From a virus: a DNA stretch of 24,124 bases. The notes under the pieces are model-generated. The model was not told where the DNA came from and did no database searches. It was given only the letters and a program-made list of their open reading frames with translations. This document shows, piece by piece, positions 2,297 through 3,050 of this stretch. How positions within the stretch are numbered: position 1 is the first letter of the stretch; each line of letters starts with the position of its first letter. A program made the position numbers and the translations under genes. The DNA lies in the UHGV virus genome UHGV-0149432; one strand, 5' to 3'.

Positions 2297-2360
2297 AGTT
2301 CACCTCAGGTAACCGGCGCCAGTATAGATGCGCCGGTGTTGTGACATTGATAATTCGTTA

Positions 2361-2600
2361 TCAGGCTATCTGCCCTGGCAGTGCGCGCAGTCGGCGCATA
2401 CCTGTCATTGCGGTGGCTACATAGCTCTTGTGTCGGTTAACAACTTCAACCGTCACCTTCACGCCGTCGACTGCCACGGTATAAGTGGTCTTTGTTTTCT
2501 GTCGGCCAAACTCCCCGTAAAGTTCAACATGCTTTGCCAGTGCTGCATCGCACGCCCGACGACCTAACGGCGATTGCTTACTGCGATTGATAAGGCGCAT
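2361..2600 (-). CDS. hypothetical phage early protein (79 aa)
   Basis: ORF with GGGGG SD 4 nt upstream of the ATG; position in leftward early operon after xis; no recognisable motif. Confidence 0.4.
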   Translation of the reverse strand: MRLINRSKQSPLGRRACDAALAKHVELYGEFGRQKTKTTYTVAVDGVKVTVEVVNRHKSYVATAMTGMRRLRALPGQIA

Positions 2601-2639
2601 ATAACCCCCTGTGACGGGAGGGCCGCCCTCCCGCCTCCC

Positions 2640-3050
2640 TTAGCCCACGTATTCCGGTTTCATGTCGTCCAGGGTGATGCGGAACTGGTCATACAGTTCA
2701 TCGCCCAGATGACGTTTGGCTGCGGTGAGCGTACTTTCAGCTTTAGCGAACATCGCTGTGGCTTCCGGTTCGCCGGGATTTGGAAGTGAGTTGATCACAG
2801 CCCCGACCTTGTTCTGCGCATCGACCTGGTAGTAACGTTTCACCGCCTTATTTTTCAGTTCGGTGTACAGGGCGGTTCCCAGCAACACTTTCTGTGATTC
2901 GATATCCACGCGAATGGCTTTTGCCTGAACAACGGAGCTTGCTGTATCAATGCGATCGCGTAGATCGTCGGCAACGGCATCAACGTTAGTTGCCGATTCC
3001 TGCGCGCTGGTCGTGGTGCTAACCTCGCCAGTGATTTCCTGTACGCTCAT
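2640..3050 (-). CDS. hypothetical phage early protein (137 aa from ATG at 3050; ORF is open to a GTG at 3272, so may be up to 210 aa)
   Basis: Long open frame on minus strand; only internal ATG at 3048-3050; hydrophilic, Ala/Thr/Val-rich product; start uncertain because no clear SD at either candidate. Confidence 0.4.
   Translation of the reverse strand: MSVQEITGEVSTTTSAQESATNVDAVADDLRDRIDTASSVVQAKAIRVDIESQKVLLGTALYTELKNKAVKRYYQVDAQNKVGAVINSLPNPGEPEATAMFAKAESTLTAAKRHLGDELYDQFRITLDDMKPEYVG

Follow-up and report, generated by a model that had tools for sequence, protein, structure and literature searches.

In the viral genome UHGV-0149432, two short GC-rich stem-loops lie between minus-strand genes of the leftward early region: HP1 (2312-2337), in the leader of the excisionase gene xis, and HP2 (core 2615-2633), just past the end of a recT remnant. 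The whole stretch of 24,124 nt is hereafter called the window, and positions are counted on its shown strand. Both elements are real, evolutionarily maintained RNA stem-loops standing ahead of the ribosome-binding site of the next gene, and in all more than 80 distinct relatives conserve them. With moderate confidence, we read them as stem-loops of the leftward mRNA that would structure the junctions between cistrons, each of them travelling with a mobile gene cassette. Furthermore, a palindrome upstream of HP1 and a hexamer within its loop resemble a local promoter with its operator, a candidate for which we consider the case about evenly balanced.

Two stem-loops of the leftward mRNA

The two palindromes lie where the original prediction had placed them. 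HP1, in the spacer between the DUF4060 gene and xis, is the inverted repeat ACCGGCGC-N10-GCGCCGGT, a perfect 8-bp stem with 7 G-C pairs, whose arms and loop on the minus strand are ACCGGCGC / AUCUAUACUG / GCGCCGGU. It is followed by UACCU and then by the Shine-Dalgarno (SD) sequence of xis, GAGGUG; the gap between hairpin and SD is 5 nt, and not 12 nt as had been stated, with the AUG 15 nt from the end of HP1. HP2 is the inverted repeat CGGGAGGG-ccg-CCCTCCCG, again a perfect 8-bp stem with 7 G-C pairs, extendable on the minus strand to 10 bp (2613-2635), its core there being CGGGAGGG / CGG / CCCUCCCG. After it come UCACA and the SD of the DUF4060 gene, GGGGG (2605-2609), once more at a gap of 5 nt. 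HP2 had been described as lying between the two genes upstream of xis, which is right as to the position, except that the first of these genes is represented only by the last ~145 codons of recT; its spacer is thus the one between the recT remnant and the DUF4060 gene.

On the transcribed (minus) strand both hairpins fold into the stable structures that had been anticipated, and the HP1 region taken alone reaches -21.6 kcal/mol with a z-score of -2.5, which is unusually stable. Perfect 8-bp stems of this kind (at least 6 G/C, loops of 3-12 nt) are found as 6 matches at 5 places in the window, against 0.6 +/- 0.8 (maximum 3) in 200 dinucleotide-preserving shuffles, an approximately 10-fold enrichment. 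One of the five places, 6681-6706, falls within the coding part of ninG and seems to be fortuitous.

For HP1, the xis leaders of 80 viral contigs, five genomes, phage PHB10 and the Rac prophage of E. coli K-12 were compared. A common layout was found in all of them, independently of the upstream gene: the palindrome CTGAT-N8-ATCA is followed, after 21 nt (22 in Rac), by a hexamer TAnnnT enclosed in a hairpin, and then come an SD and the ATG, which is 29-35 nt from the start of the hexamer. The hairpin is present around the hexamer in 31/31 distinct relatives, with stems that are unrelated in sequence, such as ACCGGCGC, AACCGGCAUC, AACCGACAUC, GCGGCGGGCGUGG and GCGAUCAGCA, to which GCCAGCUGCAGCA, CCCGGUCAG, GGCGGCAGGCC, GGCGUCAA and CCGCCGCA can be added. 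When the stem variants, 16 belonging to 11 sequence classes, were folded one by one and compared with shuffles, all 16 folded around the hexamer, with z-scores from -1.7 to -5.7 (mean -3.5). In the subset containing TATACT, changes on both sides are seen in 9/10 pairs, with a similar outcome on a wider set; the covariation score is 0.409 against 0.256 in shuffled data (0/500 attain it), and in slid registers it does not exceed 0.124. Moreover, the 31 distinct hairpins contain 52 G.U pairs when folded on the xis-sense strand versus 10 on the antisense, and the sense structure is stabler by a mean of 4.05 kcal/mol (23 cases versus 8, Wilcoxon p = 3e-4). Because G.U pairs accumulate on the xis-sense strand, we conclude that selection maintains HP1 as an RNA structure, in transcripts beginning upstream of its 5′ arm. 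Its stem has been rebuilt many times and not inherited pair by pair.

The module extends beyond this family, as an HP1-type arrangement (palindrome, 21-nt gap, TATAAT, hairpin) also precedes a lambda-type xis at one locus (L015). A pattern scan of viral contigs returned 23 true xis modules among the 80 matches analysed, the remainder being due to chance, and strongly folded examples were found only before XisR-family genes; a second search for xis, made with Rac XisR, yielded identical Rac copies only.

For HP2, the recT 3′ flanks of 160 viral contigs and several genomes were reduced to 52 distinct sequences. GGGAGGG-loop-CCCUCCC is present in all 52, with a nearly invariant stem whose first G is 7 nt past the recT stop in 50 of them. 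The bases around the stem (the seven before it and those after it) differ widely, and the loops vary in sequence and length (CGG, GAAA, GUAA, GCAA, UUCG, UACG, CGAA, GUUACG and others), many of them being of the extra-stable GNRA or UUCG types. The rare stem changes comprise C-to-U substitutions giving a sense-strand G.U (L178, L233, L250), a fully compensated variant, GGGAGAG/CUCUCCC (L179), and one broken pair (L219). RNAalifold predicts the 7-bp stem, and 96.6% of the alignment cells pair. HP2 travels with recT rather than with the downstream gene, because it is present both where DUF4060 comes next and where another, unrelated gene does. Ribosome footprints place the leading edge of a terminating ribosome at approximately 7 nt past the stop codon. 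The conservation in related prophages that had been proposed as a check was therefore found for both hairpins, in HP1 with compensatory and sense-strand G.U changes.

The flanks of HP2 carry a further signal. In the window, a second SD-like copy, GGGAGG (2634-2639, minus strand), lies just 5′ of HP2 and right after the recT stop. In 14/14 distinct flanks whose next gene lacks an SD after HP2, the 7-nt gap is filled by GGGAGGC and the AUG is 9 nt past the stem, whereas the extra GGGAGG is found in only 3/38 flanks whose next gene has its own SD, the window being among those three. In the 14 relatives, judging by this arrangement, HP2 seems to bring the upstream SD to the start codon, as a split ribosome-binding site bridged by a hairpin; in the window such bridging would be redundant because the DUF4060 gene has its own SD GGGGG 3′ of HP2. 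The SD-less flanks, in which the next gene is not DUF4060, are those of loci L103, L180, L181, L221, L224, L229, L236, L238, L239, L245, L247, L250, L251, L257 and L261. As to the DUF4060 genes, those of L223, L228, L237, L241, L249, L253, L254 and L258 start with GGAGATGTAATGCGA, a minimal ATG-TAA start-stop pair overlapping the true ATG.

Other xis types, in Gifsy-2, mEp237 and eight genome loci, have a hairpin of a third class, GGCCC/GGGCC, whose distance to their SD is 2-3 nt, and the three unrelated classes, HP1, HP2 and this one, end 2-6 nt before the next SD. The GGCCC-loop-GGGCC hairpins follow DUF4060 and precede four other kinds of xis, with the SD CUGGAGAA and loops including GUAA, GCAA, GAAAA and GGUU, at loci L001 (Gifsy-2), L003 (mEp237), L004, L007, L008, L011-L014 and L017.

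As elements of intercistronic punctuation, the hairpins would each sit just outside the footprint of the ribosome terminating on the upstream gene (7 nt past the stop in HP2), would keep the next ribosome-binding site at a defined and exposed position, and would act as barriers protecting the flanking mRNA from exonucleolytic or 5′-end-dependent decay. A stabilising or insulating role of the hairpins, together with the promoter at HP1, is what we infer, and such a role would accord with the stability or processing function suggested in the original prediction. Attenuation had been proposed alongside processing and stability; neither a leader peptide nor an alternative terminator/antiterminator pairing was found at these hairpins. 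Conserved RNA punctuation between cistrons is ordinary and does not constitute a new kind of element, as intercistronic hairpins are well known. Nevertheless, the XisR-family leader and the recT 3′ hairpin have no Rfam match and are undescribed in the literature examined, and hence they are new examples of it.

A promoter-like signal in the xis leader

The spacer that holds HP1 also contains a 16-bp, operator-like palindrome, TGATAACGAATTATCA on the minus strand (2348-2363), which overlaps the DUF4060 stop codon and was absent from the original prediction. Its outer TGA and TCA (TGA-N10-TCA) are invariant in 25 representatives, its inner pairs covary AU/UA, and the conserved xis module has its left boundary there whatever lies upstream. 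At a constant 21 nt from it, the loop of HP1 displays the hexamer TATACT (2321-2326, minus strand), preceded by a C at 2327. In the alignment of the 25 representatives (A1), the hexamer begins with an invariant T (T41), and conservation at A42 and T46 is 90% or higher, defining the TAnnnT that is found in all 11 stem classes. Few leader columns show no or almost no variation: those of TGA and TCA in the palindrome, and those of the first T, the A and the last T in the hexamer. These T, A and T occupy the three most conserved positions of the bacterial -10 element. Scored with a crude position weight matrix, the loop hexamer ranks first as a -10 in 35/51 distinct leaders. A start 7 nt past the hexamer would fall near 2314, in the 3′ arm of HP1, and would leave the palindrome centred at about -41.5. 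At 18 nt upstream of the hexamer stands TCAATG in the window and TCAACA in the leaders of type B, which match 2-4 of the 6 positions of a -35 element, whose usual distance is 16-18 bp; TCAACG also occurs there. In the type B loci, a large phage group, the xis module directly follows the intrinsic terminator of the upstream gene. Sigma-S promoters typically have a C at -13 (PMC3141248); the window has it too, and relatives do not conserve it.

The same excisionase family is represented by xisR of the Rac prophage in E. coli K-12, in the unit recET-ralR-rcbA-xisR-intR (PMC4632033, PMC11014345, PMC3141248), to whose product the Xis of the window is related. The Rac leader resembles that of the window in its palindrome TGATTATTAATAATCA, its 22-nt gap, a TAACAT inside the hairpin, the SD and the ATG, and the unit differs in its upstream genes, rcbA and ralR instead of DUF4060. 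The xisR mRNA increases 110-fold in stationary phase in an RpoS-dependent manner (PMC4632033) and about 100-fold on depletion of RacR (PMC11014345). These three papers do not describe the leader elements or the start site of Rac xisR, and no mapped start site was found in the literature on xisR/ydaQ and relatives, including PMC4632033 and PMC11014345. Some E. coli Rac variants (L401 and five identical loci) have TAATAT in the loop and not TAACAT, nearer to the -10 consensus, and their stem has changed from U.G to U.U at one position and from G.U to G-C at another.

Sequences like the palindrome are found elsewhere in the window: TGATWW-N4-WWATCA, exact or with one mismatch, occurs 6 times against 0.93 expected, with a cluster of matches in the nin region (5498-5513, 5625-5640, 6220-6235, 6363-6378). 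The search for palindrome-like Xis sites near the att end gave nothing convincing in the window or in Rac; CTGATTATG at 762 was considered as such a site and seems to be part of the phoP promoter. PdhR binding near Rac was set aside as irrelevant to the xis leader.

On these patterns, the simplest reading of the palindrome, the 21 nt and the TAnnnT would be a weak, factor-dependent xis-int promoter with its operator. A more specific proposal, which we regard as tentative and on balance unlikely, is that HP1 would be dual-coded: as DNA, a weak xis-int promoter, perhaps dependent on sigma-S or on an activator, and as RNA, a hairpin formed in read-through transcripts only. If this were so, the xis-int mRNAs from the local promoter and those from the induced leftward operon would carry different 5′ structures and have different fates, and XisR-family prophages would gain an excision route separate from lytic induction.

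Alternative explanations and known systems

Several observations weigh against the readings given above. The minus-strand fold of the HP2 region, -23.5 kcal/mol, has a z-score of only -1.2, because its base composition by itself yields strong folds, and HP2 is therefore distinguished by its conservation and not by its own energy; its covariation is also thin, 5/8 pairs never varying. RNAalifold, applied to MAFFT alignments of the xis leader, found no consensus HP1 helix, because the hairpin is not centred at the same place in every class, its midpoint being displaced by one to three columns with respect to the hexamer, and the support for HP1 thus rests on per-sequence folding and on pair counts in the majority register. 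Besides, the sequences compared are related to each other, and the counts and p-values overstate their independence; the number of unrelated HP1 stems is a stronger argument than the statistics. As for the candidate promoter, its -35 element is poor (TCAATG in the window), an AATAAT inside the palindrome outscores the loop hexamer as -10 in Rac K-12 and in L096, where it would put the start just 5′ of the hairpin, and three loci (L012, L013, L017) carry the palindrome without the hexamer. Furthermore, the resolved upstream genes of xis are all co-directional, and read-through could therefore also feed xis; divergent genes upstream, with which a local promoter would be obligatory, were considered in six loci, where the minus-strand open reading frames have no family matches and are probably spurious.

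Among the alternatives, the hairpins might be weak terminators or pause sites that halt unmodified RNA polymerase and are read through by antiterminated polymerase. The stems are GC-rich and belong to an operon which antiterminated polymerase reads in lambdoid phages, and type B relatives bear true terminators just upstream of the xis module. However, the absence of a U-run on the coding strand, on which the original prediction had dismissed terminators, is borne out by the sequences that follow HP1 (UACCUGAGG) and HP2 (UCACAGGGG), no U-run follows the hairpin in any relative examined, and the terminator scan made no call at either site. The real terminators of the window do have U-runs (7835-7862, after an isrJ-like RNA, and 21403-21432, between convergent genes). 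With the GC-rich stem present and the U-run absent, HP1 and HP2 were rejected as intrinsic terminators, and since, besides, the gene whose SD follows 5 nt later has to be expressed, we hold the weak-terminator explanation to be very improbable. Scarcely credible, in turn, is the notion that the palindromes arose by chance, or that proteins recognise them as RNA sites of a known type (nut boxB, RNase III), for which the unremarkable z-score of HP2 and the GNRA or GAAAA loops of some relatives could be invoked. Against it stand the enrichment over shuffles and the conservation in the many distinct relatives. A lambda-type nut site was rejected: no boxA (CGCTCTTTA-like) was found within 2250-2700 even with 1 mismatch, the HP2 loop is free in sequence and length, and the HP1 loop, of 5-13 nt, has no conserved GNRA-like pentaloop; nor is there an N gene among the window proteins scanned. 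The stems of 7-13 bp are too short for RNase III, which needs about two helical turns (~20 bp). Searching Rfam with the entire window gave nothing at gathering threshold in the hairpin region, and a permissive search of 2200-2750 gave best matches of 15.7-19.2 bits versus thresholds of 40-200.

Three further explanations concern one hairpin each. HP2 might be mainly a translation device, with an SD arm GGGAGGG and an arm CCCUCCC mimicking the anti-SD, whose folding would bring the upstream SD to the next start codon or hold the ribosome that has finished recT for re-initiation. This would account for a stem sequence kept while flanks and loop change freely, for the near-constant distance to the recT stop and for the partition of the extra GGGAGG between SD-less and other flanks, and it has a precedent in the SD-bridging hairpins of T4 genes 38 and 25. 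In the window, where the DUF4060 gene has its SD after the hairpin, bridging is not needed; as the principal role of HP2 we think it possible though unlikely, and a translation role is in any case compatible with punctuation. For HP1, it could be proposed that the hairpin discriminates two xis-int mRNAs in the manner of IS10 and IS50, a locally started RNA without the hairpin and a read-through RNA with it. The -10-like hexamer is always in the hairpin, and therefore a start ~7 nt downstream falls in the 3′ arm; besides, selection of the stem at the RNA level requires transcripts beginning upstream of it. On the other side, the 3′ arm does not cover the SD, and the ribosome-binding site is 1-4.7 kcal/mol more open with the hairpin in leaders of types A and C, and less open in type B. 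Fold-back masking of the xis ribosome-binding site in read-through RNA was rejected, the mean opening-energy difference being -0.56 kcal/mol and positive in 19/49 variants. The two-mRNA scheme looks doubtful. Finally, the inverted repeat might be a DNA operator, with a dimeric protein on arms flanking the -10 that represses the xis promoter. The repeat is centred on the -10-like hexamer, and xisR is derepressed on RacR depletion (PMC11014345), yet the arms are wholly different among phages whose Xis proteins are 70-100% identical, the register of the repeat relative to the hexamer shifts between classes, and G.U pairs confined to one strand are unexpected for a DNA site. We consider this operator improbable.

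Intercistronic punctuation, which we prefer, has its counterparts in the mRNA-stabilising stem-loops between cistrons, such as the repetitive extragenic palindromic (REP) hairpins of malE-malF and the hairpins of the Rhodobacter puf operon, and, at a 5′ end, in the stabilising leader of ompA. Like them, HP1 and HP2 are stable GC-rich structures that the transcribed strand forms between cistrons, they lack a U-run, and HP1 is kept by structure and not by sequence. Unlike REP elements, neither is repeated in the genome, both keep fixed distances to stop, SD and start, and in HP2 the stem sequence itself is conserved. As in the regulation of lambda int (PI, and retroregulation by sib/tI), extra signals gather at the int-xis end of a leftward operon, and one stretch of DNA would have different roles for locally started and read-through transcripts. 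Lambda PI, however, lies inside xis and gives Int alone, while the candidate promoter described here is upstream of xis and would give both proteins, and lambda sib lies downstream of int as a long substrate for RNase III, in contrast to the short HP1 upstream of xis. The fold-back of IS10/IS50 is alike in having a 5′ arm upstream of its own start and a hairpin in read-through RNA only, and differs in that its pairing covers the ribosome-binding site, whereas HP1 stops 5 nt short of the SD and the computed accessibility does not consistently fall. The likeness to T4 genes 38 and 25 holds for the 14 relatives with the SD 5′ of HP2, the AUG 9 nt 3′, no SD between and an effective SD-AUG spacing of 5-9 nt; in the window, with an SD of its own after HP2, the downstream gene departs from the SD-bridging pattern.

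A prophage remnant and its genomic setting

The genes next to both hairpins are all on the minus strand. The integrase gene (795-2081; Pfam Arm-DNA-bind_2 and Phage_integrase) overlaps the end of xis (2081-2296, or 2081-2306 with its SD, GAGGTG at 2301-2306), which encodes 71 aa of the DUF1233/XisR family (PF06806, E = 5e-23; excisionase in PHROG). Between HP1 and HP2 lies the DUF4060 gene (2361-2600, 79 aa; PF13269, E = 7e-44), and beyond HP2 the recT remnant (2640-3072, stop codon 2640-2642), identified by BLASTP against Gifsy-2 RecT and by alignment with the intact relative L104. This recT is truncated at its 5′ end at about 3072: the BLASTP similarity is limited to Gifsy-2 RecT residues 225-369, and the alignment of the window to L104 starts near 3072. 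The region matches the int-xis-DUF4060-recT-recE end of Gifsy-1, Gifsy-2, mEp237, HK225, phi80 and PHB10, and in Gifsy-2 these genes have been treated as a single co-regulated unit after mutagen treatment (PMC2225428).

Beyond ~3072, the opposite strand carries a DUF551 gene interrupted by a frameshift (3096-3251 and 3252-3383), after which come a converging TolA-like lipoprotein gene (3535-3939) and then dinI, ninB, ninG and Q. No repressor, N or replication genes were found among the open reading frames scanned between the recT remnant and ninB (5560). The leftward early operon is here a stump, the immunity region with the PL promoter and most of the operon being deleted, and its normal promoter is therefore missing. 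A local promoter would thus be the sole route to the expression of xis and int. Because recT is cut, DUF551 is frameshifted and no repressor, N or replication genes turned up, this Gifsy-like prophage remnant looks defective.

A few other features of the window should be mentioned. A GC-rich hairpin, GAACGCCGGGGATCTCCCGGCGC (3503-3527), lies in the spacer that separates the DUF551 remnant from the convergent lipoprotein gene; it is probably a two-way terminator, which would block leftward read-through to the truncated recT. On the plus strand, upstream of dinI, two exact boxA-like copies of TGCTCTTAA (4777-4785 and 4850-4858) flank a U-run terminator (4794-4807) and may be the remnant of a rightward antitermination site. 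The sole Rfam match of the window at gathering threshold is isrJ (7781-7857, 55.5 bits), which starts 16 nt past the stop codon (7765) of the gene for the Q antiterminator and is closed by a U-run terminator; from where it lies, it looks like a short late-leader RNA acted on by Q, like lambda 6S RNA. At the other end, the start codon (724) of the neighbouring gene follows only ~70 nt after the end of the integrase gene (795), and because of this distance the prophage seems to sit inside the promoter region of that gene, whose product we take to be PhoP-like. In this stretch (724-800), the sequence CCACATAATCAGCGTTAAACTA appears to resemble the -10 region of E. coli phoP, and an insertion there could alter PhoP autoregulation.

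For the XisR family, including Rac xisR, the analysis provides a concrete layout for xis expression: an operator-like palindrome, a -10-like hexamer and a rebuilt hairpin. The regulation of Rac xisR by RpoS and RacR was measured earlier and has not been mapped, and this layout offers a testable frame for it. In the remnant described here, a local promoter would decide whether the prophage can still excise from beside phoP. More generally, when recombination and excision cassettes of Gifsy-like phages pass from one phage to another, their own RNA hairpins move with them, and such cassette-bound hairpins are useful for annotating the module boundaries of mosaic phages.

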